Source: an uncultured virus (IMG/VR IMGVR_UViG_3300025085_003231)
Lineage: Duplodnaviria; Heunggongvirae; Uroviricota; Caudoviricetes
Strand: one strand, 5' to 3'
Length of the DNA: 64,000 bases
IMG/VR virus record: IMGVR_UViG_3300025085_003231
The notes below the pieces were generated by a model, which was given only the letters and a program-made list of their open reading frames with translations, made no database searches and was not told the DNA's origin. The position numbers were made by a program, and so were the translations under genes. This document shows positions 1-32,945 of the stretch, piece after piece. Within the stretch, counting starts at the first letter, position 1, and the number at the start of each line of letters is the position of its first letter.

Positions 1-2
1 GA

Positions 3-1679
3 AGTTATCCAGAACTTAAAAACCTTAGTGATGAGCAATTGTTGGCAAGAGGTATTGATTGTTTAGCCTTACAAACAGCCAATCGGGAATCTTTTGGTGC
101 GGAAGATATAATTTATGTTTCACCAAACGAAGGGATAGATATTGATGCCAAGATAGAAACCATCAAAAACACAGGTCAAAAAGTTGCCCGAATTGATTGG
201 TTTGCAACTCCTAAAGGAAATGGTTTTGGAAGGGCTGAGTTTGAGAACTTTAGGGATTGGGCCTACAAACAAGGTGCTGCATACATCGTGGTAGAGTCTG
301 TGCCAGAAAGTGTTAATTTTTGGAAATGGATGGGTTTTATAGAACCGTTTGGTCTTGTTGAACCAAAAGATGAGTTTTTGGCAACACACCTTGGATTAAA
401 TACTCTAATTTATCTTGCTGAATCGGAAGCGGAAGGCGGACAATTCGCTGCGGAAGATAACTATGATGCTACCTATGGTAAAGCCCAAGCCAAGATTCGC
501 AGGAAACTCAAAAACAAAATCAAGAAACAGGCGATAATGGGGACTAAGGCGGGTCAATGGTCGGCTCGTAAGTCCCAAGAATTGAAACGCCAATACGAGG
601 CTGCTTGTGATAAAAAAGGTTTGAGTCCATACAAGGGCAAGAAAACCAAATCGCAAGATAATCTTAGTAAATGGAGCAAACAAAAGTGGGGAACTGCTTC
701 AGGAAAGAAGTCATCTACTACTGGCGAACCATATTTCCCTGCTAAGGCAGTTGCGGCACTCAAAGACAAAGGATTATACTCCAAAGCCAAGCAACAAAAG
801 AAAGCCGCTACCAAGGCAGGAAAGCAGAACGCTCGGTATAGTGACGACATTCGTGCCGTAGTCAAAAACTATCGCTCCGAAACATATGAGGAAGCAACAG
901 GCGTAGAATTTTCTGAACAAAACCCTGAAAAGATTGAGGCAGACGCTCCACCCGATTGGAGAGAATCTATCATTACTATTCCACAATCAGATTCTTTTGG
1001 CTATGCTTTGTATCGCAAAATGTCAGACCTAACCTATAATCAGGTATGGAGGGTCTTAGAAATTATTGATGACCTAAATCGTATGAGTCATCACCATGCC
1101 CTAACCAAATTCAGTAGCAACTATGTAGAAATTTGGATTTACAGCCATGATAGCGGATTGGTTACGCCGAAAGATTATCACTGGGCCGAAGATTTTAATG
1201 ACATGATTGCTACGGTGGACTGGCAAATGTGGGAGTCCGAAACCGAATGGGATGATGTAGATTGGGAAAATGAAAAACCTGTCAAGCCCAAAAATGATTG
1301 GGGTGATGATATAGAGTGGGATGCTGAAGATGATTGGGGTTCGTTGCGTCCTGAAACTCGCCCAGAATTTCCTACCGTTGATGCTAAAATTGCCTCTATG
1401 CTGCGAAACCACTCTAAAGTAAATGTCAATGGTGAACAAGGATGTCCTCGTTGTGGTCATGAAGATTTATTCTATCGTGAATCCACAGGGACTGGAACTA
1501 AATGGTATTGCTATGGGTGTTTCTATACTGAAAAGACAGAATCTATGAAAAGTCAAAAGGTCATCACTTTAGAAAAATATGGTCTGAAGGTTCGGTGTCC
1601 TGATTGTAATGAAATGATTGTGGCTTATAATCAAGCCTCAGTTAATAGTCACCGTAGAAAATGTGGGGTGACTAAGTGA
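3..1679 (+). CDS. 5'-truncated multi-module (poly)protein: GNAT-like, DUF5872-like basic domain, PCD-like domain, two Zn-ribbons
   Basis: Frame is open from the window edge. PKGNGFGR..SVNFWKWMGF (GNAT); AGQWSARKSQ..SQDNLSKWSKQKWGT..GEPYFP (DUF5872-like); HHH..VEIWIYSHDSGLVTPKD (PCD-like); CPRC/CYGC and CPDC. Modules are separated by FGAE, FAAE, YRSE and WDAE. Confidence 0.7.
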   Translation, partial: SYPELKNLSDEQLLARGIDCLALQTANRESFGAEDIIYVSPNEGIDIDAKIETIKNTGQKVARIDWFATPKGNGFGRAEFENFRDWAYKQGAAYIVVESVPESVNFWKWMGFIEPFGLVEPKDEFLATHLGLNTLIYLAESEAEGGQFAAEDNYDATYGKAQAKIRRKLKNKIKKQAIMGTKAGQWSARKSQELKRQYEAACDKKGLSPYKGKKTKSQDNLSKWSKQKWGTASGKKSSTTGEPYFPAKAVAALKDKGLYSKAKQQKKAATKAGKQNARYSDDIRAVVKNYRSETYEEATGVEFSEQNPEKIEADAPPDWRESIITIPQSDSFGYALYRKMSDLTYNQVWRVLEIIDDLNRMSHHHALTKFSSNYVEIWIYSHDSGLVTPKDYHWAEDFNDMIATVDWQMWESETEWDDVDWENEKPVKPKNDWGDDIEWDAEDDWGSLRPETRPEFPTVDAKIASMLRNHSKVNVNGEQGCPRCGHEDLFYRESTGTGTKWYCYGCFYTEKTESMKSQKVITLEKYGLKVRCPDCNEMIVAYNQASVNSHRRKCGVTK

Positions 1680-2143
1680 ATATCATAAATTGGCTTAGAA
1701 AACCCGCACACCCACCATTATGGACTTTTGCACGAAGTTATCAGAACTTAGGTGAAGAGTTTTTTTATGCTCCATCTCGTGAACACGCCCAAGCAGAAAT
1801 TATACACCATATGAGAATGAATCATGGTGATGAGATAGGTGAATTGAGGTGGGAGCCTTTTGAAAGAGATGGATTAGTCAGTATGTTAAGTGAATACGAT
1901 AATAATAAATTGGTTGAAGGTTCGTGGGGCTACTTAAAATCAGTAAATAGCGATGTTAAAACTTTAAAAGAAATAATGGATAATTCTGTGCAACTCTCAG
2001 ACGAGGAGCAGGTAAAAAAACAAAACAGAGTTGAAGCATACCTGAAATATCTGGTCGGTAGTTCCACACGGGGATGGACCCCAGAATCCGACATTGGTTA
2101 TTATGGCTACGACCCCTCTAACAGAAATCCATTTGAAGAATAA
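1676..2143 (+). CDS. Hypothetical protein
   Basis: 155 aa ORF overlapping the upstream stop by 4 nt. Confidence 0.6.
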   Translation: MNIINWLRKPAHPPLWTFARSYQNLGEEFFYAPSREHAQAEIIHHMRMNHGDEIGELRWEPFERDGLVSMLSEYDNNKLVEGSWGYLKSVNSDVKTLKEIMDNSVQLSDEEQVKKQNRVEAYLKYLVGSSTRGWTPESDIGYYGYDPSNRNPFEE

Positions 2144-2150
2144 GGATTAG

Positions 2151-2157
2151 TTAAATA
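2151..2157 (+). promoter_or_regulatory. TATA box (TTAAATA) for DP2
   Basis: 22 nt before ATG 2180, the same spacing as at about 28 genes. Confidence 0.75.
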
Positions 2158-2179
2158 GGTGATGCGACTACTAAAAGGC

Positions 2180-5100
2180 ATGACTCAGTGGACGCATGAT
2201 GAATACATATCTCGTCTAAACGCTGACGCTGATGCCGCATACCTAATCGCTGATGCTGCCAGAGCCAAAGGATATGACCCACGAATCACTGTGGAAATAC
2301 CTCAAGCGTTTGATTTGGCAGACCGATGCCAGAAATTACTGGAATTTTTACACCCTCGCAGAACTGCTGAACAGATTCGTGCGCTAACTGAATCACACGA
2401 TGGAAACCGTGAAATGGTGGCTCTGGATATTGCTAAAATCGTTACTGCGGAATCATGGTTATATGGTATCAAAAATAAATGTGATTCTTGCGGTGGAGAA
2501 AAGGTCGTCAAAAAGGGAAGACGAACTGTGAGTTGCGATACTTGCGATGGAACGGGGATGATTCTGAACTACTCCGAAGATATTGAATTAGACTATGAAG
2601 AAACACTGCAAAAATTCTCTGATAATGAGCGAATCATCAAAGACGACACTTTCGGCGCATTGTGTATCTATCATGGTGTGTGTGCAGGATTAGCAGTTCT
2701 GACAGAAGGTATTCTGGTGGCTCCATTAGAAGGTGTGGTATCGTGTCGTATTGTCATGAATGAAGACCGCAGTAAATCATTAGCCATCAACTTTGCAGGG
2801 CCTATCCGAAGTGCAGGTGGAACAGGTCAAGCCTTGTCGGTGTTGATTGGAGATATTATCCGTCGTGAGTTCGGATTAGTCCCTCCTCAAATTACTTTTG
2901 AAGAGGCTGAAAGATACAAAGAAGAAGTCAGTAAATACGCTCGTGGTCTACAATACCGACCTTCTAACCCACAATTAGAGATTATTGCTTACAACTGTCC
3001 TGTATATATTGATGGTGAAGGTGTGGGTAATGAAGTCTCAGGGCAGCGTGACTTGCCTCGTGTTCCAACCAACAAGGTTCGGGAAGGGATGCTGCTGGTT
3101 ATGTGTGAGGGTCTGGTATTGAAAGCCCCCAAGATTTTGAAATACACGGAAGCATTGGGATTTGCCGAATGGGATTGGCTAAAGCAATTTACCAGCAAAG
3201 GAGATTCAGATGCTAAGAAAGCATCTATTGAACCTAACTACAAATTCTTGGCTGATATTTTAGCAGGTCGTCCTATTTTTTCTCGTCCTATGGCTCGTGG
3301 TGGTTTCCGACTACGATATGGTCGTAGCAGGTTAGCAGGGTTAGCCACTACTGCTATCCATCCAGCCTCTATGAGAGCCGTAGGTAGTTTCCTTATCGTC
3401 GGAACACAAATGAAATATGAGCGGCCTGGAAAGGCAACTGTGGTAACTCCTTGCGATACTATTGAAGGGCCATATGTAGAATTTACTGATGGTTCGGCTC
3501 GTCGCATACAAGAAATGGATGATTTAGAAGATGCTGTTCCCACAGAAGAAGAGTGGAATATCGCTCGTGTGTGGGATTTGGGAGAAATTCTGGTTCCTGT
3601 GGGTGAGTTCTTGGAAAATAACCATCCTTTAGCACCCAGCCCTTATGTTCACGAATGGCACGAGTTGATTGTTAGTAAAGAAGAACTTACTTATCCAGAA
3701 ACATTTTCTGAAGCATTAAATCAGTCCCAGAAATTTAATATCCCGATGGCTCCTGAGTATATTGCTCATTATAGTGACTTGCTCCCTGAAGAATTGCAGA
3801 CTCTTTTGCAAGGCATGACAATCACTGATGGTTCGGCGCAAGTGGAGCCAGATGTATTAGAAATCATTTATCGGCTCAACATTGATGTAGATGTTAATCG
3901 GTGTTTATCTGGGGACAAATCGGAGTTACTTTTGAATCTCTGGAATTCAAAATCTCAATTGGATTTTAAATCTGACTCGGACGGTTCAGCATTGGGAGTT
4001 ATCCGAAACTTTTACAATTTTCCAATTGAAAATCCCATTTCTATCCGTATTGGTGGACGAATGGGAAAGCCTGAAGGAAGCAAACTACGAGAAATGAAAC
4101 CTCCGATTCATTGCAACTTCCCTGTGGGCTTCAATGTAGGTAGTCAAAGGCTGCTACGAACTGCGGCAGACCAGCAAGAAGATGTAGAAACTGGGTGGCG
4201 TATGTGTGATGTTTGTGAGGAAGCAACTATCTGGGGCGTTTGTTGTGGTGCCGAAACTCGTTTCGTCGGATTGAAGTGGGATAAAGTGGGAATAAAAGAT
4301 TTGTATGAGTCTGCCTTGGAATCTGCGGCGATTGCTGATGGAAAAATCAAAGGTGTAAAAGGAATCACCAGTTCGGAGAAAATCCCTGAGCATCCTCTCA
4401 AGGGTGTGTTAAGATACAAGCATGGAATTTCCATGTTCCGAGATGGAACAATTCGTTTTGACATGGTGGACATTACCATGACTCACTTCCGACCCAGAGA
4501 AATTGGGATGACAGTGGAACAAGCGCAAGAATTAGGATATGACTGTTCAACTCTGGACGATGTTTTAGAGTTGAGACCGCAAGATGTGGTGTTGCCTAAG
4601 AATTGCTCAGAGAAAATTCTGGCTACGGCAAATTATATGGATGACTTGTTAGGCTCTATGTATGAATTGGAACCCTATTATAATTGTGATACCGTTAATG
4701 ACTTGATTGGACATTATGTGATGGGTATTGCCCCTCACACCAGCGGAGCAATCTTGGCACGAATTATTGGGTTTGCGGATGTGAAAGGACATTATGGACA
4801 TCATTACTATCACGCAGCCAAACGCCGTAATTGTGATGGAGACATTGACGCAGTATTATTGTTGCTGGATGGATTGATTAACTTTAGTAAAAAATTCTTG
4901 CCAGGACACCGAGGCGGGCAAATGGATGCACCTTTGATTTTAACTACCAAGATTGTGCCGTCCGAAATTGATAAAGAAGCCTTGAATGTAGAGATTGTAG
5001 ACCACTATCCGTTGGAGTTCTATGAATTAACTCAAGGCATTGAAGATGAAGACGGAGATTTGGTCCCACCACCTGCTAAAGCAGCCGTAGAAGCAGGAGT

Positions 5101-5707
5101 AACCATTGTGGAGTCGGTGTTAGGCACAGACTTGCAGTATGTCGGCCAGAAATTTACTCACGACACACGAGATTGCAGCGAAGGGCCAGCCAACAACCCT
5201 TACAACACTTTGGACTCTATGCGACAGAAAACCATGGCTCAATTTGCTTTAGGCGATTGCTTACAATCCGTAGATAACAAAGAACAGTCATCCCGATTGA
5301 TTCAACGACACCTAATTCGTGACATGAGGGGTAATCTCAGAGCCTATGGGCAACAAAAAGTCCGTTGTCCTAAGTGCGGAGGTAAATACCGCCGTCCACC
5401 CATTTCGGGACGCTGTATGACGATTTTGGAAACCAAGCAGAATCCATTTTCGGGCGAAACCGAGCAAATTTATTGTGACGGTAAAATTATCCTGACGGTA
5501 ACACATGGTTCAGTTGCTAAGTATGATAAACTCATGGCTGAATTAGTGAATCGCTACGGTGCTGATGATTATACCGAAGGATTGTATGAGCAAGTTAGTC
5601 GCTGGGTAAAAGATACTTTTGAAGATAAAAATATTCTGAGTCAATCAAAATTACCATTACCTGAGAGCGAATCAACCGAAGGTTCAAATAGCAGCAAAAC
5701 CAAATAA
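2180..5707 (+). CDS. polC: DNA polymerase D large subunit DP2
   Basis: TEGILVAPLEG, FAGPIRSAGGT, GGFRLRYGRSR, GTQMKYERPGK, IGGRMGKPE, FRDGTIRFD, catalytic AAKRRNCDGD, GGQMDAPL and a C-terminal CPKC Zn site. Start moved to ATG 2180 by promoter spacing. Confidence 0.97.
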   Translation: MTQWTHDEYISRLNADADAAYLIADAARAKGYDPRITVEIPQAFDLADRCQKLLEFLHPRRTAEQIRALTESHDGNREMVALDIAKIVTAESWLYGIKNKCDSCGGEKVVKKGRRTVSCDTCDGTGMILNYSEDIELDYEETLQKFSDNERIIKDDTFGALCIYHGVCAGLAVLTEGILVAPLEGVVSCRIVMNEDRSKSLAINFAGPIRSAGGTGQALSVLIGDIIRREFGLVPPQITFEEAERYKEEVSKYARGLQYRPSNPQLEIIAYNCPVYIDGEGVGNEVSGQRDLPRVPTNKVREGMLLVMCEGLVLKAPKILKYTEALGFAEWDWLKQFTSKGDSDAKKASIEPNYKFLADILAGRPIFSRPMARGGFRLRYGRSRLAGLATTAIHPASMRAVGSFLIVGTQMKYERPGKATVVTPCDTIEGPYVEFTDGSARRIQEMDDLEDAVPTEEEWNIARVWDLGEILVPVGEFLENNHPLAPSPYVHEWHELIVSKEELTYPETFSEALNQSQKFNIPMAPEYIAHYSDLLPEELQTLLQGMTITDGSAQVEPDVLEIIYRLNIDVDVNRCLSGDKSELLLNLWNSKSQLDFKSDSDGSALGVIRNFYNFPIENPISIRIGGRMGKPEGSKLREMKPPIHCNFPVGFNVGSQRLLRTAADQQEDVETGWRMCDVCEEATIWGVCCGAETRFVGLKWDKVGIKDLYESALESAAIADGKIKGVKGITSSEKIPEHPLKGVLRYKHGISMFRDGTIRFDMVDITMTHFRPREIGMTVEQAQELGYDCSTLDDVLELRPQDVVLPKNCSEKILATANYMDDLLGSMYELEPYYNCDTVNDLIGHYVMGIAPHTSGAILARIIGFADVKGHYGHHYYHAAKRRNCDGDIDAVLLLLDGLINFSKKFLPGHRGGQMDAPLILTTKIVPSEIDKEALNVEIVDHYPLEFYELTQGIEDEDGDLVPPPAKAAVEAGVTIVESVLGTDLQYVGQKFTHDTRDCSEGPANNPYNTLDSMRQKTMAQFALGDCLQSVDNKEQSSRLIQRHLIRDMRGNLRAYGQQKVRCPKCGGKYRRPPISGRCMTILETKQNPFSGETEQIYCDGKIILTVTHGSVAKYDKLMAELVNRYGADDYTEGLYEQVSRWVKDTFEDKNILSQSKLPLPESESTEGSNSSKTK
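5684..5690 (+). promoter_or_regulatory. TATA box (TCAAATA) inside the DP2 3' end
   Basis: GGTTCAAATAGCAGCA, 22 nt before ATG 5713. Confidence 0.7.
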
Positions 5708-6786: not shown

Positions 6787-7479
6787 TCATTGTAGCAATC
6801 CGTAGGCTTGAAGTGCTACGATAATCTCTTCTATTGAGACTTGGACATTGTTTAAGTTTGCATCTGTGGTTCCAGCGAGACTGCCCAAAGATGTCGGGTC
6901 AGATGGACTCGGAGCATACGGGGTTGCGATTTGTTGAGCCACAGGGGTTGCTCCCATGAATCCTACTGTGCTGGAAGGGTCTACTCCGACTGAGAGATTA
7001 CCAGTGACTGTCAAAGTTGTGCCGTCAAAAGTTAAATTGGCTTCACCTTGTAGGGCGTTAGCACCAGTGACTGTGGAAATGGTATTGTTGGTGCTTCCTG
7101 AAAGAGTCACGCCTCCCGAACCGCTTGATGCGGCTGTTATTCTGCCTTGTGCATCCACGGTAATGTCAGCACTTGTGTAACTTCCTGCGGTAACGGCTGT
7201 ATTGGCTAAACTGATTGTTCCTGTGGTAGTGATTGGACCACCCGATAAACCTGTTCCTGTGGCGACCTCAGTAACTGTTCCTGAGCCACCTCCACCACCA
7301 GAAGAGGAAATTAAAACTGTGTTGCTGGAAGTTCCATTGAGAGTAATTCCTGTGCCAGCCACTAAGTTTAGCGTGGGGTCGGGAGTAATTGTGGTCTGTC
7401 CTGAAACAGTTCCACCATCAGCAGATGTCTTGATAGTGGGACTTCCTGCTCCACCTTGACCTGAATAGCCATTTGCCAT
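6787..7479 (-). CDS. Gly/Thr-rich fibre/spike protein
   Basis: GTVTEVATGTGLSGGPITTTGTISLANT..ITVDAQGRITAAS phage-fibre-type repeat; promoter at 7502-7508. Confidence 0.75.
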   Translation of the reverse strand: MANGYSGQGGAGSPTIKTSADGGTVSGQTTITPDPTLNLVAGTGITLNGTSSNTVLISSSGGGGGSGTVTEVATGTGLSGGPITTTGTISLANTAVTAGSYTSADITVDAQGRITAASSGSGGVTLSGSTNNTISTVTGANALQGEANLTFDGTTLTVTGNLSVGVDPSSTVGFMGATPVAQQIATPYAPSPSDPTSLGSLAGTTDANLNNVQVSIEEIIVALQAYGLLQ

Positions 7480-7522
7480 AATAAATATTAGGTGGTGCTG
7501 CTATTTGAATCTAATGATTGCT

Positions 7523-8311
7523 TCATTGATAAACTGGAATGAACATGGGTCCTAATCCGACATCAATTTCTAACCAACCTGCGGGATTCAAAGGACCGCC
7601 CGTAGGTGAATCGGGGAATACTGCGGCAACAGGTGGAGCGGCAGGTGGCGCAAAATTACCTATTTGCTGTGCATCAATATAATTTGCGTCATTGTTTAAT
7701 GTTGTAATATTGTCCCCTGCGGCCAATTTATTATTGAATGTAGTCCAATTTGCACTTGACAAATAACCATCAGCACCTCCGCTTGCTTGGGTGATACCGA
7801 TTGTTCCCGTTCCTGTGATAGTGCCTCCTGTAATCGGGGCTGATGTAGCAACCGAAGTAACTCCGCCTCCGCCTCCGCCCGAACCGTTTGAAGCAGCAGT
7901 TATTCTTCCTTGAGCATCAACCGTAATGTCGGCACTTGTATAATTACCTGCGGTAACTGCTGTGTTTGCTAAAGCCACAGTTCCAGAAGCGGTAATAGTC
8001 CCTCCACTTAATCCAGTTCCTGCGACAATTTGTGTAACCGTTCCTGCATTAGCCGTATATCCTGCATCATTGGCTAACAAAGATACGGGTTGTCCTGCTT
8101 GAATGGCTGAATCGGCTTTGACTCCTTGTGCAGCAGTGGCGAAATCTCCTGTGTTATCCTGAGCAGCCGTTCCTAATGTAATTCCTGAGAGTTGGTTCAA
8201 TTCTGCGGAAGTAGAAGTAACTGCTACATTGTTAAGAAATAATTTGCTGTTCCCAATTTTTACTTCGTCTGATGCCGTAGCATCATTAACACGAAATGGT
8301 TGTTCGGCCAT
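7523..8311 (-). CDS. Gly/Thr-rich fibre/spike protein
   Basis: Same ITVDAQGRITAAS block, plus FATAAQGVKADSA and GYLSSANWTTFNNK motifs; promoter at 8334-8340. Confidence 0.75.
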   Translation of the reverse strand: MAEQPFRVNDATASDEVKIGNSKLFLNNVAVTSTSAELNQLSGITLGTAAQDNTGDFATAAQGVKADSAIQAGQPVSLLANDAGYTANAGTVTQIVAGTGLSGGTITASGTVALANTAVTAGNYTSADITVDAQGRITAASNGSGGGGGGVTSVATSAPITGGTITGTGTIGITQASGGADGYLSSANWTTFNNKLAAGDNITTLNNDANYIDAQQIGNFAPPAAPPVAAVFPDSPTGGPLNPAGWLEIDVGLGPMFIPVYQ

Positions 8312-8346
8312 GGATAACTATTATGGCTGCTGCTATTTGAACCTTA

Positions 8347-9360
8347 TCAAGCAATAGTTTGTCGCATAAATCTGACAGTTAGACTATTACTTCCTGTGCG
8401 AGTAACTTGAACTGCGGGACTGGCAGCCGAAGTGACATTGACCGTAAATAGCGGTCCTGCGCCTGTGAAAACATCAGCGAATGGAACGAAAGAAGAACCA
8501 GCCCCGTCTGCCGCTACCACTAATTCAGTAGTCTGTGATTCTCCTGCGGTAGCATCAAAAGCCGTAATAACATATTTGGCTCCTTTGTAAGAACCTCCTG
8601 CAAAAGAGTCAATGGTGGTAGCAGAACCTGATGATACAGCAGTGGTGTTGCTCTTGAAACTTCCATAAACCGAACCTCCTGCACCGATTTGCAATAATTC
8701 GTTAGTGGTATCAATATTAAATGAGGCATCTACGGAGAATCCACCGCTACCATCTGATAGCAAAATATCTCCTGCGGCTCCAGGTGTTGAGGCTCCTGCA
8801 TCGGCAGCCCAAGTTACAGTTCCTGCGCCGTCAGTCTTTAGAACTTGATTAGCAGAACCATCTGTGACAGGCAGAGCAAACCCACCAACGGTAAAACTTG
8901 AGGCACCTGAATAATCCATGGCTCCTGAAACTGTTGAGCCTCCTGTTCCTGTTAAGGGTCCCGCTCCAGCAGACACACCGACACCAGAAATTTGTCCCGA
9001 TGCTGTAATAGTGGTGGCACCTGTGACTGCACCGCCTGTGATGTTGAGTTGTCCATCAGTAAGGCTTCCACCTGTGAGGGCTCCAGAAGCATTGACTGAA
9101 ACGGCATTTGTGATACTTCCTGCGTTGATGGTGAGTGTGCCATCAGTGAAACTACCTGCGGTGACCAATCCTGAAGCATTAACAGTAGTGGCTCCTGCAA
9201 TTGCACCTGCATTAACAAGACCTCCTGCACTTGCATCTAATCCAACACCAGTAATCAAACCAGTGGCTGTGATGGTGGTGGCTCCAGCGATTGCACCGCC
9301 CGAACCAATTGTGATTGTGCCGTCGGTGGCTTGGGTAAAGCGAAACGCTTGTTGTGCCAT
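8347..9360 (-). CDS. Fibre/spike protein with ITGATTITASG-type repeats and a C-terminal beta domain
   Basis: Repeats plus IDSF..YKGAKYVI..QTTEL; promoter at 9383-9389. Confidence 0.75.
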   Translation of the reverse strand: MAQQAFRFTQATDGTITIGSGGAIAGATTITATGLITGVGLDASAGGLVNAGAIAGATTVNASGLVTAGSFTDGTLTINAGSITNAVSVNASGALTGGSLTDGQLNITGGAVTGATTITASGQISGVGVSAGAGPLTGTGGSTVSGAMDYSGASSFTVGGFALPVTDGSANQVLKTDGAGTVTWAADAGASTPGAAGDILLSDGSGGFSVDASFNIDTTNELLQIGAGGSVYGSFKSNTTAVSSGSATTIDSFAGGSYKGAKYVITAFDATAGESQTTELVVAADGAGSSFVPFADVFTGAGPLFTVNVTSAASPAVQVTRTGSNSLTVRFMRQTIA

Positions 9361-9395
9361 ACCCTACTATTCTGGTTTTTGCTATTTAAATTTGT

Positions 9396-10055
9396 CTAAC
9401 TTAACAACGACCGAATTACTTTAACGGTGTGATTATTAGCAGAGCCTGGAGTGAATTGCAAGACAAAATTAGCCCCAGAAATTACACCATTAAAACTTCC
9501 TAACGGTGCATCACTAAAGATGGTGCCATATTCTACTACATATCCTGTGGTTCCATCGTGAACGCCCAATAATTCTGAGGTCTGATATTCTCCTGCGGTA
9601 GTGTCTGCTACTTGAATAATGTATTTTACTGAGCGATAACTGCCAAAACCCCACGAATCTATGTTGGAAACTGCGGCTCCCGTAGTGGTTTGAGAACGAG
9701 TGGTGAGATTCATATCATTGATAGACAGACTTCCAGAACCTGTGAGGCTTAAAATGTTGCTGGTGGCATCAAAAGAAAATTCATTTTTGCCGCCGATAGT
9801 ATCTAATGCTGTGGCGTAGGCTACTTGCGTGGGTTGAATAGTCCCTCCGATTGAGCCGCCACCACCTCCGCCTCCAGAAGACTGAATGGTGATGGTATTT
9901 GGGTCACTTCCTGTTAAGGTGATATTAGACCCAGCGACTAAGTTAATTTCTTGGGAGCCATCTAAAGTTGTATCTCCTGCAACAGCACCAGCACCTGCTG
10001 ATAAATTGATTTGAGGCCGCCCTGCAAACCCTGTCCCAGAAAACTTTTCAGCCAT
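9396..10055 (-). CDS. Fibre/spike protein
   Basis: N-terminus like 6787..7479; C-terminal IDSW..YRSVKYIIQ..YQTSELLGVHDGT like 8347..9360. Confidence 0.75.
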   Translation of the reverse strand: MAEKFSGTGFAGRPQINLSAGAGAVAGDTTLDGSQEINLVAGSNITLTGSDPNTITIQSSGGGGGGGSIGGTIQPTQVAYATALDTIGGKNEFSFDATSNILSLTGSGSLSINDMNLTTRSQTTTGAAVSNIDSWGFGSYRSVKYIIQVADTTAGEYQTSELLGVHDGTTGYVVEYGTIFSDAPLGSFNGVISGANFVLQFTPGSANNHTVKVIRSLLS

Positions 10056-10072: not shown

Positions 10073-11017
10073 TCAGACACCGCCCTCTAAGGCTTGTCGT
10101 CCAGTATCAGTGAATCCTGTTTGTTGCTCAGACCATCCAACGAACACTGCTTGAACATTGCCTGTAAGGGTATCTACACCTGCAACTGCACCAGTGTTGA
10201 TAACACGGAATACAACTTGCTTTTCTACCACCAGTGGAATTTCAAACTTCCATTGGTCGGATTGAGGAACAACTACGCTCCATTGGAAATCGTCCCATTC
10301 AAAAAGTAGTTCTCCGTCTACCCAGATTTGATACCTAACGGTTGATGCGCCATTAGTAGTGGGTTCTGTGTGTCCAAAGCGAGAAACTAAATATAGTTCA
10401 TTCTTACGACCTGCTTCAGTGGCCGTGGAAGTTCCTGTGGTGGTAATTCCTGTGAACAATCCACCGCCGCTACGAGCCCCAGAAGGAGTTCCTACGGAGT
10501 TCGGAGTAAAGACCTGACCACCAACTGAAGTGGATGCGGTAGACGGAAAGGTTGGAACGGTAGAATCGGGAAGAGCGGATGCTGCGGGTGAGCCGCTGAC
10601 CCAACTTTGAGTTCCCAAGACACGAGCATCATTGACATTGATAACCACTGCATCAATATATTCTCCAGCATCTAAAAATCCACCTGCTAATCCTGTGAGA
10701 GAAACCACTTGGCGTTGAATAACATTCGCAGAATTGCTTTTAGGAACCAAATGCCACGGATAATTCTCTGAATTGACATTGTTAGGGTGCAACATCAGAT
10801 TTTCCATAGCGGGGCGAACTGGACGCTTATAGGTTGAAGGGTCAATTCCAACTCGCTGCGGAGAAGTAGCAACCGAAGTTTCGGTGCTGTATGAAGAATA
10901 AGGAACAGGAGTTGAATTAACTGCATCGCCCTTCTGTGAATATCCTGTTTGGAAAGCCTTCTTACGGTAGGCTCGTTTGAGCCCACGGATGTTATCGTTG
11001 GTATCTCCTGACGGCAT
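10073..11017 (-). CDS. Putative virion structural protein with a beta-rich C-terminal domain
   Basis: Alternating beta pattern (VRYQIWVDGE, PLVVEKQVVFRVIN, VQAVFVGW); GGTGAT RBS; promoter at 11052-11058. Confidence 0.55.
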   Translation of the reverse strand: MPSGDTNDNIRGLKRAYRKKAFQTGYSQKGDAVNSTPVPYSSYSTETSVATSPQRVGIDPSTYKRPVRPAMENLMLHPNNVNSENYPWHLVPKSNSANVIQRQVVSLTGLAGGFLDAGEYIDAVVINVNDARVLGTQSWVSGSPAASALPDSTVPTFPSTASTSVGGQVFTPNSVGTPSGARSGGGLFTGITTTGTSTATEAGRKNELYLVSRFGHTEPTTNGASTVRYQIWVDGELLFEWDDFQWSVVVPQSDQWKFEIPLVVEKQVVFRVINTGAVAGVDTLTGNVQAVFVGWSEQQTGFTDTGRQALEGGV

Positions 11018-11031: not shown

Positions 11032-11754
11032 TTACTTTTGGTCCTTCCTGTTATTTAAGGTTAAGCCAAGTTTGGGAGCCATTTTTTGTGCTTCCCTTTG
11101 TTCTTTCCAATATTGAGCGGATGTGGCTAAATACCACTCCCAAGAACTGGTGTCTAATCCCCGACTCAATAATAGTTGTCTACGGAACCACTCTACATTA
11201 TCTACACTTACTTCAATACCCAGCGATAGCAATTGTTCACAAATCAAAGCATCAGAACCTGAAAAAGTCCAATATTGAACAAAAACCTGTGCCGCAGGTC
11301 GGGAAAGAGCCCAAGTTCCTGTGGGATATTCATTAAGTATAACATATCTGACATCCCAAGTTTGAAAGGGCCTCACATACACATCAGGTTTCAGCAAATA
11401 ACCATAATTAGAGGTTAAATCTTTAGGAAATGACGATGAATCTCCTGAAACGCCCCAAGATTTGATATTTTCGGGATTCTGATAATAATGTGTGGTGTTG
11501 ATTACTATCTGAACAAAGCCATTGGGTCTCCATTGCTCAATATTTCCCAGAGTTACTACGGGTGCGGCTGAAATTCCTGGGGTGCTTCCAAAATCGTCTA
11601 TCACAACGAAATGGTCTTCTCTCACCATCGCTGTTTCCGTAATATTGTTACCATATCCGCTGGTAAAGATAGAAAATTGGTTCGCAGGATTGGGTAGATT
11701 ACTTCCATCTGCCGCAGGAATTAGTTCCCACAAGTATATTTGTTTGCGAATCAT
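11032..11754 (-). CDS. Minor capsid-like paralog
   Basis: RKQIYLW, IFTSGYGNNITE, INTTHYYQNPE, PDVYVRPFQTW and GSDALI match 27858/28553; TGATG coupling. Confidence 0.7.
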   Translation of the reverse strand: MIRKQIYLWELIPAADGSNLPNPANQFSIFTSGYGNNITETAMVREDHFVVIDDFGSTPGISAAPVVTLGNIEQWRPNGFVQIVINTTHYYQNPENIKSWGVSGDSSSFPKDLTSNYGYLLKPDVYVRPFQTWDVRYVILNEYPTGTWALSRPAAQVFVQYWTFSGSDALICEQLLSLGIEVSVDNVEWFRRQLLLSRGLDTSSWEWYLATSAQYWKEQREAQKMAPKLGLTLNNRKDQK

Positions 11755-12524
11755 CAACTTAACCTCCTTGGAACTTCTTCTAAAGCCTGTTCGTATTCGT
11801 TTCTTTCAGAAATATCAGCCATCAATTTGTTGCGAATTATCATTCTTTTGTGCGCCTGAACTGTCTTGACATTAACAGGGATGTTCTGAGACATTAAAAA
11901 ATTGGCTATCAGTGCATCAGAACCATCAAATAAAACATACTCCAGATAAACACGAGGAATCCAAATATCTCCATCCTCGTCGTCAATGGCGGTGGTGACG
12001 GAATAATCCCAACTTCGGGTAGTTACACCAGAAGTTTGCCTATCATATGCTACTTGAGTCTGTTGCAATTGATTGATTGAATAATATACACCCCAAGTTT
12101 GGCCTGGGATTACATACATTGGAGTATCACTGAGATAAAAAGATGGGCTAATTGATTGAGGCCCATAGCGTAATCCTGGGGACGGGCCATAGGGTGAAGC
12201 ATTACCTGAAATTCCAGGGCCTACTACATTATCAGGCTGTTGAAAATACTGGGTGGTTTCTACCCAAATATTAGCACTGGCAGGAGGAGGCCATAATGAG
12301 AGTTCATCAATAACAATAAATTGAGTCGCTTTAACATAGCCAGGAATGTCTAAATTATTGCCCAATCCTCCGACAAAAATGTCTACTTGGGCATTAGCAT
12401 TAGTTCCCCACGCAGGAATCGCAGGAGATAAAGTCAAAATTGGGTCTTGGTTAAGAACATATGGTGTCGGGTAGGTAGTAGAGGGAATCAAACCTCTCCA
12501 CTCATAAGCCTGACGACGCATCAT
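11754..12524 (-). CDS. Minor capsid-like paralog
   Basis: RRQAYEW, IFVGGLGNN, TQYFQQPD, YVIPGQTW, FDGSDALIAN; promoter at 12547-12553. Confidence 0.7.
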   Translation of the reverse strand: MMRRQAYEWRGLIPSTTYPTPYVLNQDPILTLSPAIPAWGTNANAQVDIFVGGLGNNLDIPGYVKATQFIVIDELSLWPPPASANIWVETTQYFQQPDNVVGPGISGNASPYGPSPGLRYGPQSISPSFYLSDTPMYVIPGQTWGVYYSINQLQQTQVAYDRQTSGVTTRSWDYSVTTAIDDEDGDIWIPRVYLEYVLFDGSDALIANFLMSQNIPVNVKTVQAHKRMIIRNKLMADISERNEYEQALEEVPRRLS

Positions 12525-12562: not shown

Positions 12563-13090
12563 TCAATAGACGGTCTTTTGAATTTCAAGTTCGCCAATAA
12601 GTGTTACTTTGACACGAACCGTAGCCACATCTGTTCCTGCACTGACCATATCGTGTGCAGCAATAGCGGCGTTATTGGAAACAGAAACTTGTAGCGGTTG
12701 CTGGAACAGCACCAAAACAGGGCTGGTAAAAGCAATATATCGTTGGTTTGCAGCACCTGGCATTACCAATCGCTGGATAGAAATGTCGTTAGTTGGAATG
12801 CGGTTGCCTCCGACCAGAATTTCCACATCAAAATCTGTGAAAGTTCCAAATGGAGCGGTGTTAGGAGCGACATAATTGTAATAGTAAGGATTAGTTACGG
12901 TTTCTACCTTGAGTTGGTTGCCCGCAGCATCAAGAGGGACAATGTCAATTGCGAAACCATGAATCCTAACATCTTCGTTGTTAGCCTGATTGGTATAAAT
13001 TGTGGCAATATTTGATGTCCCATTAGTAGCAGGGACAGAAAAATCGTGATTTGTAGTCAGAATTTTTGGTTCAGGGTCTTGATTTGCCAT
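12563..13090 (-). CDS. Beta-rich penton/vertex-like protein, paralog A
   Basis: MANQDP..HDFSV..TNQANNEDVR..PVLVLFQQPL shared with the next gene. Confidence 0.55.
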   Translation of the reverse strand: MANQDPEPKILTTNHDFSVPATNGTSNIATIYTNQANNEDVRIHGFAIDIVPLDAAGNQLKVETVTNPYYYNYVAPNTAPFGTFTDFDVEILVGGNRIPTNDISIQRLVMPGAANQRYIAFTSPVLVLFQQPLQVSVSNNAAIAAHDMVSAGTDVATVRVKVTLIGELEIQKTVY

Positions 13091-13103
13091 ATTTTATCCC
13101 TCC

Positions 13104-13592
13104 TCAAGCAACACGACGGGCCGCAATCTTCTGAATAGAAAGTTCGGAGATAAGAGAAATCTTGGCACGAATCGTAGATACTGTGGTTCCGTTGTAAGAA
13201 AATACTCCGACACCTGAGTTAGCCGTGAGGTTAATCTTGAGAGGTTGTTGGAAAAGCACAATCACTGGAACTGTGAAACTCATGGTCTGGTCTTGTTGTC
13301 CGTAAATCCAGGCAATATCAAAAGCATTGGATGGAATGTTGTTCGGTCCAACACTCAAAGCCATGGTAAAATCTGTGGGCATAGTGAATTTCGGGTCAGT
13401 TGTGCTGGTAATTTGGTTTCCTGCTCCATCAATCAAAGCAAAATCAACTGCCACTGCATAAACACGAACTTCTTCGTTATTTGCTTGGTTGGTGAAAATA
13501 GAGACAGCACTCTGCGTTCCACTTGCTAATGGGGCCACACTGAAATCGTGGACGGTGGTATAGACTTCTGGCTGCGGGTCTTGATTTGCCAT
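13104..13592 (-). CDS. Beta-rich penton/vertex-like protein, paralog B
   Basis: Tandem paralog; GGAGAT RBS; promoter at 13630-13636. Confidence 0.55.
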   Translation of the reverse strand: MANQDPQPEVYTTVHDFSVAPLASGTQSAVSIFTNQANNEEVRVYAVAVDFALIDGAGNQITSTTDPKFTMPTDFTMALSVGPNNIPSNAFDIAWIYGQQDQTMSFTVPVIVLFQQPLKINLTANSGVGVFSYNGTTVSTIRAKISLISELSIQKIAARRVA

Positions 13593-17356: not shown

Positions 17357-18313
17357 TTACGCCTTGCGACTAAACCACCATGCAGCACCAATCGCTAATG
17401 ATGCGGCAATAACAGCAGCGGTTTGCTTGTTAAATCGGGATTCTGTGGAACCTTCTTCCATAGAATCTACCATTGATTGAGCATCCATCGTCATTTCTGG
17501 GAAATCCTCACGGTCGTAATAACCGTCATAGTCTTGTTCATCAACACGAGTCTGAAATTCTGCGATTGCATCAACCACATCTTCAGAAAAACTGTATGGG
17601 AAAGCAATTTCAAATTCTCCATTAGTGGATTCAGAAATAACCACCAGTCCGTTTCGGATGTCATCATCCAGCACATCGGAAAGATAGTTCTTAATTGGTT
17701 CATCAACCACAAATACTTCTCGTCCGTCGGAATCTTCATAGACATTTTGCACAGATTCTGTGACTTCGGAAAACTCGGCTTCCATTTCTTCGTCTCGGAG
17801 CCCTTCTTCCATAGGAATAGCGACTTCTTCGGGTGAATTGGTGTTAATGGCTCGCTTAAGTCGGCTCAGAGCGGAACCACCTTCTGCACGACCAGCCCAG
17901 ACATAATCATGAGCAGGAAGAGAAGGAGCAGCGTCAGTAGCAGAAACAATTTCTCCGCCAGTGTGTTGTCCAATAATTCTACCATCGCCTACTGGGTCAG
18001 TAGATGGCTCAGGAACTAAAAGTTCTGCGCCCGATTCAGATGGTTCAGAGGCTTCAGCCGCAAAAGCCGAAGGAGTTGCTTCTTCAGCAGCATAAACTGG
18101 GAGAGTTTTTCCCAATTGTTCACAAATAGTAGCAGCATCTTGGGCTCCAATTAGACTCTGACATTTGTGTTCTTTGCCAGTTTCTGGGTTGTTGTAGTAG
18201 CCAATAACTTGATAACGACTGCCTCCACCCTTGGTTTTGGTAGCAATAATATCATGAACCTCACACATAACTTTCTTTTTGAGTCCTGTGGAGTAAATTT
18301 CTCTGCTGACCAT
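17357..18313 (-). CDS. AE-motif polyprotein: Cren7-like N-module, acidic modules, C-terminal TM
   Basis: YAAE, FAAE, GRAE, MEAE; AAVIAASLAIGAAWWFSRKA; promoter at 18336-18342. Confidence 0.65.
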   Translation of the reverse strand: MVSREIYSTGLKKKVMCEVHDIIATKTKGGGSRYQVIGYYNNPETGKEHKCQSLIGAQDAATICEQLGKTLPVYAAEEATPSAFAAEASEPSESGAELLVPEPSTDPVGDGRIIGQHTGGEIVSATDAAPSLPAHDYVWAGRAEGGSALSRLKRAINTNSPEEVAIPMEEGLRDEEMEAEFSEVTESVQNVYEDSDGREVFVVDEPIKNYLSDVLDDDIRNGLVVISESTNGEFEIAFPYSFSEDVVDAIAEFQTRVDEQDYDGYYDREDFPEMTMDAQSMVDSMEEGSTESRFNKQTAAVIAASLAIGAAWWFSRKA

Positions 18314-20449: not shown

Positions 20450-22789
20450 TTATTCCCATTCCGAGGCCCAGTAATCCTGACCCCACTTGTAATTCATTAA
20501 CATATCTGTAACAAAAACGGCACGAGAAGCGGCTTGTTGGTTGTCTGCTGAACCACTCATCAGTGCTTCAAAAGCAGCCATATTAGCAGCATCATTTAAT
20601 GATTGTAGCATTTCCACATCTGCGGATGAAATATGACTTTGTAAGGTATTTACAAAACTGGAATCCATCAATCGCATAGGCAAGTCATCATCGTTAATCA
20701 TAGAATTTACGAAATCAACAGTTTGTTCAGTGGTGTAGGTGGCCTCAATTGAAATTTCTGGGATGGCTTCGGGCTCCAGTTCCATAAAATCAGCGATGTC
20801 AATTTCTTCTACAAAACCTTTGGTGAATTTGCCTGAACTATCTCGGTTCTGAATTCTCCAAGATTTGGTTTCCGCAGAAAAATTCTGAGATAGCCTGTCA
20901 TTAGTGACTTGAGCGACTCGTGACCAATCTTCTATGCTGTCGGGTTGGAGTTCACGACTCACCTTGGCTAATTCCAGAGCAGGAGTAAAATCATCATTAG
21001 TTCCTGCGGTTCGTAATACCCGATTTCCCTTATCGTAAAAATTAAGGTTGTTAGCGACCACTGCTCCTCCGCCTACGACCTTTCCAAAGACACTACAACC
21101 ATAGTGCATGGTTCTTCCTAAAACACTCCATCCATTACGGTTACAATTGCGGTAGAAATTTGAGGCAGTGTCGGCTTCAAAGGATTCTGCTCCGTGATAG
21201 GTGGTGCATTTATCACAGTATTGTGTTCTATGTGCCTTACAAGGCCACGCTTCCAGGCTTTTACTAACTGATTTACACATCCTTAAAGCATCATCATAAG
21301 GTATGCCTAAGTTCTTCTCCATGCGTCTTGCAGTTTCCTCATCCGATTCTCCTTCAAAGGTTTCAGCCATAGCAGCCCAATCGGGTTTATCTCTTGACTG
21401 GCATTTTTGAGAACAATAACCGTTTCCAAACTCCACTATAACAGGTTTTGTGCAATAAGGTTTTACACATTTTGGGTATTTGGTTTCAGCAAGCATTTCT
21501 TTGAACCCATGGGATGAAATGTGTGACTTAATCCTCTTCTCTTCGGGACCACCACTAATAATAAACGAAGCATAGCCTCTCGGATTAACAGGGTCAAAAT
21601 TGAAATTATCATAAATCCAATTGTAATCATTTGTATCATTAGGATTTATCATGAAGGGTGAAGTATGATTAGAAGCATCAAAGTGAAATCTTAAGAAATA
21701 AAAAGCATTTTTCTTGCTTTTATCCTCATACATTACTTCTGTAATTAGAATCGGGCCACTTGCATAATCCTCTAATATGCCGTCAAATTCCCAATCTGTT
21801 CTACTTGATAAAGGAACTTTGCTTCCATCTTTGGGGTTTTGATAAGCGTATTCTCTTTCTTTGCGATTGTCTTTGTATATTTTATCCATTTCCTTAGAAG
21901 TTATGTGCAAATCATTAGCCCCTAAGCCATCATATTCGGGGTCTGCTTCAAAAGTTTCAGCATCCCAGACGCTATCTTCAAACCACAAACTCCCATAACT
22001 CACAATACTGCCTTCCTTGAATTGAGGCTCGTGAGGATATTCATTAAGGAAACATGAAAGACAACCTTGCTCATCACATTCACAAGGATTCAATTTCGTA
22101 TCTTCGTAGTAGTCTCGGTAATCTTTTTTACTCACCACAGAATAGGACTTTAGTTCTTCTCCATCCCCGAATCCACCCTCATTATCGTAAATGCCTTCGT
22201 AGAAAAGTTTAATATCGTCTTCGGCATCATAAGACATTTTATTTTCTCTCATGTATTGTCCTTCGCATCCATCGCCACAGAATTTATATTCTGAACTATC
22301 TCCCCACTTATTTACAATTGATGTGGTTTGTGTTGATGGTGATTCACAATTTTGACAGGAATCGCCTTCTGCGTTAAAATCTTCTTCTTCCATTAAATAA
22401 TCTACGGCTCTTTCAATAAGTGATTGACGGGCAGATGGCTTATCAGGGCCTTGTCCATAACTACTGATACGAGAGCGTCCATTATTGGGTAGTCCAAACA
22501 TTACATCTCCAAAGACAAAGGTTTCTCCATCTCGTTCCATAGAGTGATTGACATTAACCATTATAACTTCGTAATCTTCTTCCGCAGAAAATTCTTCGCT
22601 GGCAAAAATTGGGTTGGCTTCCAGCCACTGTTCCACAAACCATTTAGGAATCTCTACCTCTCCATGAATAATGTCTTCAAAGTATTGGTCTACCTCTATC
22701 TGACCCTCCCATTCGTCAGAGTCCTCTGAGTTGATTACTTCTTGCAAATATTCTGCGTAGGCATATCCTAATGATTTCATTCGTCCCAT
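20450..22789 (-). CDS. Large acidic AE-motif polyprotein with several Cys-rich modules
   Basis: FSAE, FNAE, YDAE, WDAETFEAD, MLAE, MAETFEGE, GAESFEAD, FSAE; GAGGTG RBS. Confidence 0.75.
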   Translation of the reverse strand: MGRMKSLGYAYAEYLQEVINSEDSDEWEGQIEVDQYFEDIIHGEVEIPKWFVEQWLEANPIFASEEFSAEEDYEVIMVNVNHSMERDGETFVFGDVMFGLPNNGRSRISSYGQGPDKPSARQSLIERAVDYLMEEEDFNAEGDSCQNCESPSTQTTSIVNKWGDSSEYKFCGDGCEGQYMRENKMSYDAEDDIKLFYEGIYDNEGGFGDGEELKSYSVVSKKDYRDYYEDTKLNPCECDEQGCLSCFLNEYPHEPQFKEGSIVSYGSLWFEDSVWDAETFEADPEYDGLGANDLHITSKEMDKIYKDNRKEREYAYQNPKDGSKVPLSSRTDWEFDGILEDYASGPILITEVMYEDKSKKNAFYFLRFHFDASNHTSPFMINPNDTNDYNWIYDNFNFDPVNPRGYASFIISGGPEEKRIKSHISSHGFKEMLAETKYPKCVKPYCTKPVIVEFGNGYCSQKCQSRDKPDWAAMAETFEGESDEETARRMEKNLGIPYDDALRMCKSVSKSLEAWPCKAHRTQYCDKCTTYHGAESFEADTASNFYRNCNRNGWSVLGRTMHYGCSVFGKVVGGGAVVANNLNFYDKGNRVLRTAGTNDDFTPALELAKVSRELQPDSIEDWSRVAQVTNDRLSQNFSAETKSWRIQNRDSSGKFTKGFVEEIDIADFMELEPEAIPEISIEATYTTEQTVDFVNSMINDDDLPMRLMDSSFVNTLQSHISSADVEMLQSLNDAANMAAFEALMSGSADNQQAASRAVFVTDMLMNYKWGQDYWASEWE

Positions 22790-27857: not shown

Positions 27858-28508
27858 TCACATTCCTTGAGCGGAAAGGAGTGAACGCTTATACCAGTCC
27901 ACATTTCCTGGGTTGATGGAGATACCCATTTCCAACAACTTGTTGGCGATGAGTGCATCAGGACCGTCGTAAAGAGTGTATTTGGTGAATGCGTAGTGGT
28001 CTACTCCGCTTGCTGCTCCCCAAGAACCTGCGTTGAAAGCAGTGTAAAGGATGTCCCAAACTTGTCCTGGCAACACATATACATCAGGGTATAGGTTGAA
28101 GGAAGGCTGGAAATCAAGGGAACGAGGGTAAGGACTGGCCGAACCTGGGATACCTTGGTTTGCAACATTGTCTGGGTCAAGGAAGTAGTCCGTGGTGTTG
28201 ATACGAACTTGCACATAGGCACGAGGACCGAGTGTTCCGTTTCCTGGGGTGAAATCACCAAGTTGTCCTCGGTAATCTGTTGAGACAGTAGCCGCAGTTG
28301 CAGTTGCTGGCAGAGTTGGTGTGCAAGCAATGTCTTCAATGACAACGAATTCTGTGGCGGTTGTTTCTGCTGGCTTGGTAATGTTGTTACCGAATCCACC
28401 GATAAAGATAGAAACTGCTCGTCCCGCTTGCGCTGCGACGAAGTTGTTTGCGGTTACACCATTTGGCCCGAGGCCGTTCCATTCATAAATTTGACTTCTC
28501 ATACTCAT
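27858..28508 (-). CDS. Putative major capsid protein 2 (beta-rich, possibly single jelly roll)
   Basis: 216 aa tandem paralog of the next gene; beta-strand pattern plus C-terminal helices; AAGTGATTATTATG start context. Confidence 0.6.
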   Translation of the reverse strand: MSMRSQIYEWNGLGPNGVTANNFVAAQAGRAVSIFIGGFGNNITKPAETTATEFVVIEDIACTPTLPATATAATVSTDYRGQLGDFTPGNGTLGPRAYVQVRINTTDYFLDPDNVANQGIPGSASPYPRSLDFQPSFNLYPDVYVLPGQVWDILYTAFNAGSWGAASGVDHYAFTKYTLYDGPDALIANKLLEMGISINPGNVDWYKRSLLSAQGM

Positions 28509-28552
28509 AATAATCACTTTCCATAGTTAGTTTTCCCAAAGGAACCCCGAAC

Positions 28553-29209
28553 TCAGACTCCTCCGTTAGCAGGGGCCATTGAAGCACGGGTTTGTTGCTC
28601 AATGAGGGAACGCTTATACCAATCAACATTGTTTGGATTGATGGTGACACCAAGTTCCAAAAGTTTGTTTGCGATGAGTGCATCAGGACCGTCGTAAAGA
28701 GTGTATTTCACGAAAGCAGCAACAACTTGTGTAGTTGTGCCGTCCATTGCGGAGTTGATACTGTAAAGAATCTGGAAGACTTGACCAGGTAGAACATAAA
28801 CATCTGGGTAGAGGTCAAAAGACTTCAAGAGGTTGTCCTTGGTGTATGTCAAAACAGTTCCTGCAACGCCGACTCCAGAAGGAGAGCCACGAGGGTAAGG
28901 ACTTGCAAGACCTGGGATACCACGCTGACGGGTAACATCTGGGTTCTGGAAGTAATCAGTGGTGTTGATTCGGATTTGGACTGAGCCACCGAGCCAAGGA
29001 GAACAAGCAATGTCCTCAATAACGATAAACTGGGTTGCAGTTGTTTCGGCTGGCTTGGTAATGTTGTTTCCGTATCCGCCGATAAAAATATCAATTTCTT
29101 GTTCGGTCGGAACTGTAACAGGAACATCACCTGTGGTTCTTCGTAGGCTACTGGATTGACCTGTTGGGGCAAGGTTACTCCATTCATATACTTGGCTTCT
29201 CATACTCAT
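28553..29209 (-). CDS. Putative major capsid protein 1 (beta-rich, possibly single jelly roll)
   Basis: 218 aa; GNNITKPAETTAT, INTTDYF, LYPDVYVLPGQV and KYTLYDGPDALIANKLLE are identical in both paralogs. Confidence 0.6.
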   Translation of the reverse strand: MSMRSQVYEWSNLAPTGQSSSLRRTTGDVPVTVPTEQEIDIFIGGYGNNITKPAETTATQFIVIEDIACSPWLGGSVQIRINTTDYFQNPDVTRQRGIPGLASPYPRGSPSGVGVAGTVLTYTKDNLLKSFDLYPDVYVLPGQVFQILYSINSAMDGTTTQVVAAFVKYTLYDGPDALIANKLLELGVTINPNNVDWYKRSLIEQQTRASMAPANGGV

Positions 29210-29265
29210 AATAATCACTTTTTGTTGCACAGTTGCTGTGTCTAATATTATATGGTATTTTTGAC

Positions 29266-29272
29266 TATATAA
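29266..29272 (-). promoter_or_regulatory. TATA box (TTATATA) for the capsid-like operon
   Basis: AACCTTATATAGTC, giving a leader of about 35 nt with an RBS. Confidence 0.65.
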
Positions 29273-29295
29273 GGTTTTACCCATTTCGGGGGATT

Positions 29296-32027: not shown

Positions 32028-32063
32028 GTTTATTATCTCCGTGTTTTTGCTATTTAAGTTTGT

Positions 32064-32897: not shown

Positions 32898-32945
32898 CTT
32901 TAAGACTCCTATGTTTTTATCGTGGTTCTTGCTATTTAAGTTTAT

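Follow-up and report, generated by a model that had tools for sequence, protein, structure and literature searches.

The open reading frame (ORF) at positions 3-1679 (+ strand) of the window, by which we mean the whole 64,000-nucleotide stretch of DNA analysed here, is probably one allele of a cassette polyprotein, whose cutting by a viral protease we infer. In the sequences compared, its modules are bounded by a short word of the form aromatic/hydrophobic-x-[A/S]-E and are exchanged at this word between close strains. The word is a probable protease cut site at which related strains gain, lose and reorder whole enzymes, and one viral gene can thereby serve as an open-ended, strain-variable cargo bay.

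The frame is open throughout (558 aa) and, without an upstream stop, runs off the left window edge, by which the mosaic ORF is 5'-truncated. Its full-length form, P0002 (761 aa, eight modules), is identical to the window ORF at 557 of 558 residues over their overlap, supplies the first 203 aa absent from the latter, and carries, in this order, an N-terminal module, a Zn finger, a helical mini-module, a GNAT, a DUF5872, a PCD (pterin-4a-carbinolamine dehydratase-like), an acidic mini-module and a double Zn-ribbon. The window ORF (all features on the + strand) starts with the end of the 48-aa helical mini-module (3-104), closed by the junction word FGAE (nt 93-104), and continues with a GNAT-like module (105-422, closed by YLAE at 411-422), a short linker (423-455, closed by FAAE at 444-455), a basic DUF5872-like module (456-881, closed by YRSE at 870-881), a linker plus PCD/DCoH-like module (882-1241, with the match at nt 951-1202, closed by WESE at 1230-1241), an acidic Trp-rich mini-module of 29 aa that WESE opens and WDAE (1317-1328) closes (1242-1328), and the double Zn-ribbon module, which is C-terminal here (1329-1679). 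In P0002, 188 of 202 right ends and 159 of 168 left ends of the blocks shared with other proteins fell within six residues (<=6) of eight junctions. Left ends clustered in the linker before the DUF5872-like module (117 of 168 at aa 146-151), and 91 right ends fell at aa 293, the end of that module. Neither IEAD (933-944) nor HWAE (1179-1190) coincided with any homology break, and both lie inside the PCD module. An earlier, sequence-only reading of this DNA had proposed that unrelated domains are joined at AE words; this held for FGAE, FAAE, YRSE and WDAE, failed for IEAD, and the junction at WESE had been overlooked.

The family assignments proposed in that reading also largely stood, at modest scores, and none of the Pfam matches spans any of the six junction words. 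The DUF5872 match (aa 167-271; E 2e-5) reached 25.4 bits, just under the curated cut-off of 27.5, and the Pterin_4a match (aa 317-400; E 1e-5) 25.8 bits compared to a cut-off of 26. For the latter module, an NCBIfam match (E 7e-5) gave 22.9 bits, far under the equivalog cut-off of 80, all five PDB matches were PCDs (E 0.02-0.46), and its HH and SHD residues align to PCD2. The Zn-ribbons after WDAE matched DUF7838/Zn-ribbon families in Pfam (aa 478-555), just under the curated cut-offs. The GNAT segment is weakly supported: neither Pfam nor NCBIfam gave a match, the first ESM Atlas match by features was a GNAT (0.93, 145 shared features), and its counterpart in P0012 had weak GNAT matches (aa 483-527, E 2e-4).

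These families had further been described as normally stand-alone, which was borne out for DUF5872: all 27 other homologs of this module on viral (phage) contigs are stand-alone ORFs of 57-134 aa without the word, and those of full length end near the position of the closing word of the module. GenBank phages gave short matches only (6 records). At least one module derives from a stand-alone phage gene whose stop coincides with a present word. Scanning the viral contigs with the PCD module gave no relative, and with the GNAT module G001, one of the related viral genomes described below, as the only match.

The word is in excess well beyond this ORF. In the 63 ORFs of the window, [FYW]xAE occurred 34 times compared to 9.5 ± 2.7 times in shuffled proteins, and each of four related genomes (G001-G004) carried 44-54 instances vs 17-23 expected after shuffling; together with the enzymes among the modules, this agrees with the earlier proposal of a genome-wide system that includes enzymes. 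By word count, a second word-rich mosaic ORF lies at 20450-22789 (- strand; five strict words), and further ones lie at 37314-39218, 42812-44236, 36596-37309 and 17357-18313. The region 17357-46426 (- strand) encodes about 20 proteins that have a membrane helix at one end and acidic regions bearing the word, and short repeated mini-modules recur in these membrane proteins between genes and genomes.

To relate the word to homology breaks, we used a working set of 123 proteins, selected via one module (DUF5872) and consisting of the best 120 of 319 longer-protein matches, matches of an earlier search, and P0001. Sharp ends of shared blocks were collapsed to 607 distinct contexts, and the word was defined as [FYWLMK]x[AS]E. 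In 391 of these 607 contexts, which are interrelated and therefore not independent, the break lay at most five residues from the word in both partners, while random positions gave 6.1 ± 2.6 (maximum 16 in 500); the other 216 breaks lay away from the word in one or both proteins. This test replaced a smaller one on four genomes, in which 6 of 20 breaks were at the word vs 0.46 expected. When no word was presupposed, the shared stretch ended in E in 36% of 429 break contexts (4.3x background), and the 285 of the 429 contexts that could be registered on AE/SE read F/Y/L (71%), R/A/E/G, A (78%) or S (22%), E, and then D/E/S/A/T. The end of the DUF5872-like module conformed to [YF]R[ASVT][ED] in 122 of the 123 listed proteins.

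The modules of the window ORF recur in varying company. Among 122 listed proteins, the helical mini-module (cluster 5) was found in 30, with six different upstream and seven downstream neighbours, the acidic Trp-rich mini-module (cluster 3) in 49, with 11 and 12, respectively, and the double Zn-ribbon (cluster 1) in 72, being N-terminal or internal in relatives; the GNAT-like module of the window was found in six. Splitting the 122 proteins at the word gave 124 clusters and 101 architectures, both of which are upper estimates because the loose pattern over-splits some domains. The cargo in the 30 alleles that we scanned included Cu/Zn SOD, PolX, NUDIX, several GNATs, a second PCD and a weak PPPDE-like peptidase module, and some alleles carried HExxH modules (clusters 18, 22, 32 and 58). 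On three long viral contigs, the DUF5872 module was present at 62-89% identity, each time within a different chain, next to SOD, zincin, ART-like (by eye), other GNAT or DUF5754 modules.

If the chain is indeed a cut polyprotein, the word would represent the P4-P1 residues recognised by a protease of the virus itself. This enzyme would release the modules, most likely while a membrane-containing virion is being assembled, and would trim the membrane-anchored proteins there as well. Once free, the GNAT, SOD, PolX, NUDIX, PCD-like and Zn-binding products would be carried along or put to use individually, and the basic DUF5872 module may tether the chain to DNA. Ordinary recombination in the word-coding DNA, combined with selection for intact modules, would account for the shuffling without a dedicated recombinase site.

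The alternative that survives best, although we consider it rather unlikely, is that the chain works uncut, as a polyvalent protein, and that the word serves as a tag for docking or packaging, or as a favoured linker cap, to which a partner from the capsid or membrane or an AAA+ protein (MoxR/vWA) binds. The word is repeated many times in the acidic, low-complexity membrane-anchored proteins, a MoxR-like ATPase cluster belongs to the core genes, and enzymes do not avoid the word: in replication and metabolic enzymes (63 proteins), the strict word occurred 12 times vs 11.0 after shuffling, and the looser word is also found inside folded domains (HWAE in PCD, KxSE in PolX). An apparent excess in these enzymes with the loose pattern (54 vs 35) disappeared with the strict one, and depletion was absent with either. 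However, a tag would not be needed at every module border, yet the borders follow the word, and the word stands in place of the stop of a stand-alone homolog. Moreover, Cu/Zn SOD and PCD function as oligomers, which would be awkward within a chain of 8-13 modules. Polyvalent proteins, as described in the available text of PMC5512222, resemble the mosaic chain in combining disparate domains in one polypeptide (GNATs, zincins, Pol-beta-fold, kinase-like and ART-like domains) in many architectures, and the chains studied here share both the unrelated domains and the high architectural mosaicism. Processing has been proposed for them, and N4 vRNAP, ArdC and TraC1 travel whole despite their peptidase domains (PMC5512222), which would be in line with an uncut chain. 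In contrast to the mosaic chain, with its word-exact borders and swaps between close strains, polyvalent proteins come from bacterial hosts, no shared junction word is reported for them in that text (where 'linker' has no occurrence), and processing is attributed to in-chain zincins (PMC5512222), whereas P0002 contains no zincin. None of the polyvalent hub domains (in-chain zincin MPTase, ArdC-N, methylase-helicase, LPDs) was found in P0002, and ArdC-N and LPD had no match in the 30 alleles scanned. The cut polyprotein that we favour would provide a precise candidate cut site and enzyme for a processing that was previously just proposed for polyvalent proteins. Neither the word nor the virus group was found described in the literature searched, which comprised mostly non-subscription journals; the supplementary architecture lists of Iyer et al. 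2017 (PMC5512222) could include some of these proteins.

Cleavage at a short word has precedents in viral maturation. T4 gp21 and phiKZ gp175 are Glu-specific prohead proteases. The structural polyproteins pp220/pp62 of ASFV are cut at GG-X and poxvirus sites are AG-X; these large DNA viruses likewise combine a jelly-roll, an inner membrane and one short word at which a viral protease cuts many proteins, whereas their chains have a fixed composition and their protease is a cysteine protease, compared to the variable accessory cargo, JAMM-fold candidate and archaeal virus described here. In SPN3US, gp245 cuts after A-X-E, including in itself (PMC10052503), and thus exemplifies Glu-specific viral maturation with a short Glu-ending word, many substrates and self-cleavage of the protease. 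Unlike the present case, in which the word reads aromatic-x-A/S-E and separates functional modules, the gp245-type serine protease removes propeptides in tailed HK97 phages, according to the accessible part of PMC10052503. We found no match to the serine prohead protease family in 139 (Pfam) and 78 + 45 (PHROGs) proteins, nor did the core genes match any known protease family in Pfam or PHROGs.

Aligning related genomes revealed a core gene whose product has JAMM ligands and, at its C-terminus, a membrane helix; the gene is present in all four long related contigs (G001-G004) and absent from the 64-kb window. If cleavage is real, this JAMM/MPN-fold metalloprotein is the lead candidate for the enzyme, a proposal that we favour slightly. 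The ligand pattern E..HxH..SxxD is kept (invariant H81, H83, S99, D101 and E29/E31 in A1), also in distant homologs; the H-to-S spacer of the JAMM motif is usually seven and is longer in the candidate. Its model (pLDDT 63.7) ranked MPN/JAMM proteins first in both fold searches, at scores that are modest (Foldseek E about 1e-3; VIA Z up to 6.9, or 'middling', rmsd 3.6, 121 aligned), with matches to BRCC36, Rpn11, PfJAMM1 and Cap3. The protein had no Pfam match, its ESM Atlas neighbours were unnamed or DUF4329, and a PDB sequence search with the alignment returned nothing meaningful. It thus shares fold and ligands with JAMM/MPN+ isopeptidases (Rpn11, BRCC36, PfJAMM1 and CBASS Cap3) and differs from them in its C-terminal membrane helix and in having no Pfam match. 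Known JAMMs cut after ubiquitin-like or CD-NTase tails, and the ubiquitin tail LRGG parallels the word pattern (hydrophobic, often R, small, X); to our knowledge, none acts as a polyprotein maturase. RadC-type JAB domains, on the other hand, have been proposed as nucleases (PMC5512222, as far as its available text goes).

The word itself sits between the JAMM domain and the membrane helix in 13 of the 20 scorable homologs (of 52 representatives). Three distant homologs (P0133, P0141 and P0151) are without the word; we found no mosaic loci in these lineages, and the wider alignment contained no usable word pattern. The JAMM gene is the immediate upstream neighbour of the mosaic gene, 29-102 bp away and in the same orientation, at 8 of 80 metagenome loci (7 of 52 when loci with upstream sequence are counted) and in G004. 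In G001, it shares a core block (31276-39040) with genes for a DNA ligase, a PP2C-like phosphatase and a kinase-like protein (by eye), a hint that assembly may be under phospho-control. A second protease candidate, a zincin-like gene with HExxH (54302-55615, - strand), is located next to a MoxR-like AAA ATPase gene; it had no Pfam or NCBIfam match and keeps HExxH in four of four genomes, and some chains bear their own zincin or PPPDE-like modules, which are alternative candidate cutters. The most far-reaching version of our reading, namely that linear PolD jelly-roll viruses of 150-170 kb, infecting marine Thermoplasmatota, mature via a membrane-anchored JAMM protease whose site is the universal cassette joint, is speculative, and we regard it as possible but doubtful. 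Under this version, whatever gene is captured and joined in frame between two words would turn into released cargo, and strains would reshuffle about a hundred modules combinatorially. Were the JAMM protein the enzyme, the ubiquitin-system fold would extend to viral maturation in the form of a new sequence-specific protease; the system would amount to a protein-level analogue of the integron, and its enzyme would be the first polyprotein maturase of the JAMM type.

That the chain is cut at the word by a host enzyme instead, either signal-peptidase-like or another Thermoplasmatota protease, seems improbable to us. The small A/S beside E recalls the A|E junction of signal peptidase, and the viral protease candidates are putative. 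However, most sites have no preceding hydrophobic stretch and show F/Y/W at the second position ahead of the A, an arrangement disfavoured by signal peptidase I, and the viral JAMM protein bears the word itself and adjoins the mosaic gene in some lineages.

The exchange of modules could be followed at the DNA level by comparing contigs from four independent runs (X3, X6, X12 and X15) with positions 1-2600 of the window. A contig of X15 had position 97 joined to 449, whereby the GNAT module was lost between the two copies of an 11-nt direct repeat (98-108, over the A-E-D codons, and 449-459, both +); the 351 nt between the copies are absent, and the 11 letters could be assigned to either side. 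In X12, a 27.8-kb contig had 97-443, with the GNAT module, swapped for 587 other letters. Contigs of both X12 and X15 carried an insertion at 879-881 (YRSE) of the size of the 612-nt module of locus L061, and X3 and X6 contained the window's own arrangement in overlapping pieces. Deletion, replacement and insertion all fall exactly at junctions. The strains between which modules swap at the word share 90-99% identity. A comparison of 80 distinct alleles with DNA yielded 39 clean indels, 37 of which had a word-like pair at both ends (loose pattern); all 39 are in frame by construction, given that ORFs alone were compared, which carries no evidential weight. Between the mosaic ORF and the DP2 gene, a gene of 155 aa (1676-2143, +) is replaced or divergent in run X15 and represents a second variable slot.

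Such cassette-like, exact indels and the 11-nt repeat that flanks the window's GNAT module could also be expected if the word were the by-product of an integron-like DNA recombination site and AE merely its in-frame reading, an explanation that we consider very improbable and that the codon test largely refuted. In 274 distinct word contexts, all four Ala codons (0.35/0.28/0.26/0.11) and both Glu codons (0.81/0.19) were used at background rates; the codon use of the word is ordinary, and the signal is therefore at the protein level. Repeats of at least 10 nt flanked 6 of the 39 indels vs 3.8% of random word pairs, whereas the median repeat at indel ends was 3 nt, equal to that of random word pairs (p 0.73). 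Given the background codon use and these null-like repeats, an integron-like site is not supported, and the two tests revealed no conserved, coding-independent DNA attachment site; in addition, core genes outside the shuffling keep the word at constant positions. An apparent GAA excess in the word was accounted for by the general scarcity of GCT-GAG. This scarcity (CTGAG) holds for the coding DNA of G001-G004 and suggests restriction-site avoidance. Several DNA methylase-like genes (by eye) lie at 47168-49769 of G001, and G004 has a mild Asn-Pro excess (154 vs 108 ± 10). Lastly, all data are metagenomic assemblies and the linkers are E-rich, but we attach next to no probability to chimeric assembly or to words arising by chance in acidic linkers, given the 34 words vs 9.5 in composition-keeping shuffles, the recurrence of identical joins across many independent records, and the overlapping X3 and X6 pieces with the window's arrangement.

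The carrier of the cassette polyprotein is apparently an undescribed linear archaeal virus of 150-170 kb, as its gene content suggests. G001 (166 kb) and G002 (160 kb), both with inverted terminal repeats, and G003 (150 kb) have their gene order and most genes in common with the window. In G001, these repeats (1-3461 and 162715-166176; about 3 kb) contain several ORFs. G004:C16 (136,324 bp, locus L150) is a contig of the virus group with 91 of 147 ORFs homologous; it is filed under the genome of a Rickettsiales bacterium and was probably mis-binned. The group encodes both PolD subunits, MCM, PCNA, primase, RNR, TBP and TFB. The PolD large subunit (DP2; 2159-5707, +) of the window is 59-60% identical to two viral relatives, and a PolD-related gene of G001 lies at 145642-147030. 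A DP2 scan with a single-protein query gave no match, whereas an alignment query succeeded, and the cellular full-length DP2 matches to it were mostly from Thermoplasmatota (35-45% identity). The records holding relatives are marine, and RNA runs had small shares only (0.07-0.15). The host is likely a marine Thermoplasmatota (MGII/MGIII), and the carrier looks like a widespread group of marine archaeal viruses with their own PolD and transcription factors. The literature searched gave no description of a viral PolD; 'PolD' and 'polyprotein' are absent from the available text on Poseidoniales viruses (PMC11706807), and magroviruses are linked to PolB (PMC7544198, in the portion available). Charybdis elements were considered as relatives and rejected, since they are unrelated 4.6-kb circles according to the accessible text (10.1101/2025.08.03.668216).

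The window encodes a capsid-like protein of the single jelly-roll type (27858-28517, -) and three paralogs (28553-29284, 11032-11757 and 11754-12524, -). The model of this four-paralog family (pLDDT 66) best matched the SPV1 capsid (6oj0; Z 8.5, rmsd 3.5, 136 aligned), compared to Z 6.5 for the second-best match. In a BFVD fold search, the matches were viral proteins without a name and SPV1 VP4 ranked 46th, and a PDB sequence search with the alignment returned nothing meaningful. Other beta-rich core proteins are encoded at 12563-13592 and 10073-11017. Together, the four paralogs and these beta-rich proteins suggest that the capsid encoded by this 150-170 kb genome has multiple components. The single jelly-roll archaeal viruses SPV1, HHIV-2, HCIV-1 and P23-77 resemble the carrier in their capsid-like fold, HerA-like ATPase, many membrane proteins and inverted terminal repeats (as in G001 and G002). 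In contrast, their genomes are about 20-30 kb, and the carrier encodes PolD, MCM, PCNA, primase, RNR, TBP and TFB. One ATPase matches both HerA and a PHROG named terminase large subunit. The core cluster at 47272-59942 (-), which is present in all four genomes compared, comprises a HerA-like ATPase, two vWA-looking paralogs (by eye, without family match), the HExxH protein and a MoxR-like AAA ATPase of 1429 aa. Four Gly/Thr-rich, fibre-like genes at 6787-10055 (-) vary between genomes and probably encode receptor-binding spikes, and a core protein of G001 (121263-122639) carries a long Gly-Gln tract, after which come Asp-rich repeats that look calcium-binding-like.
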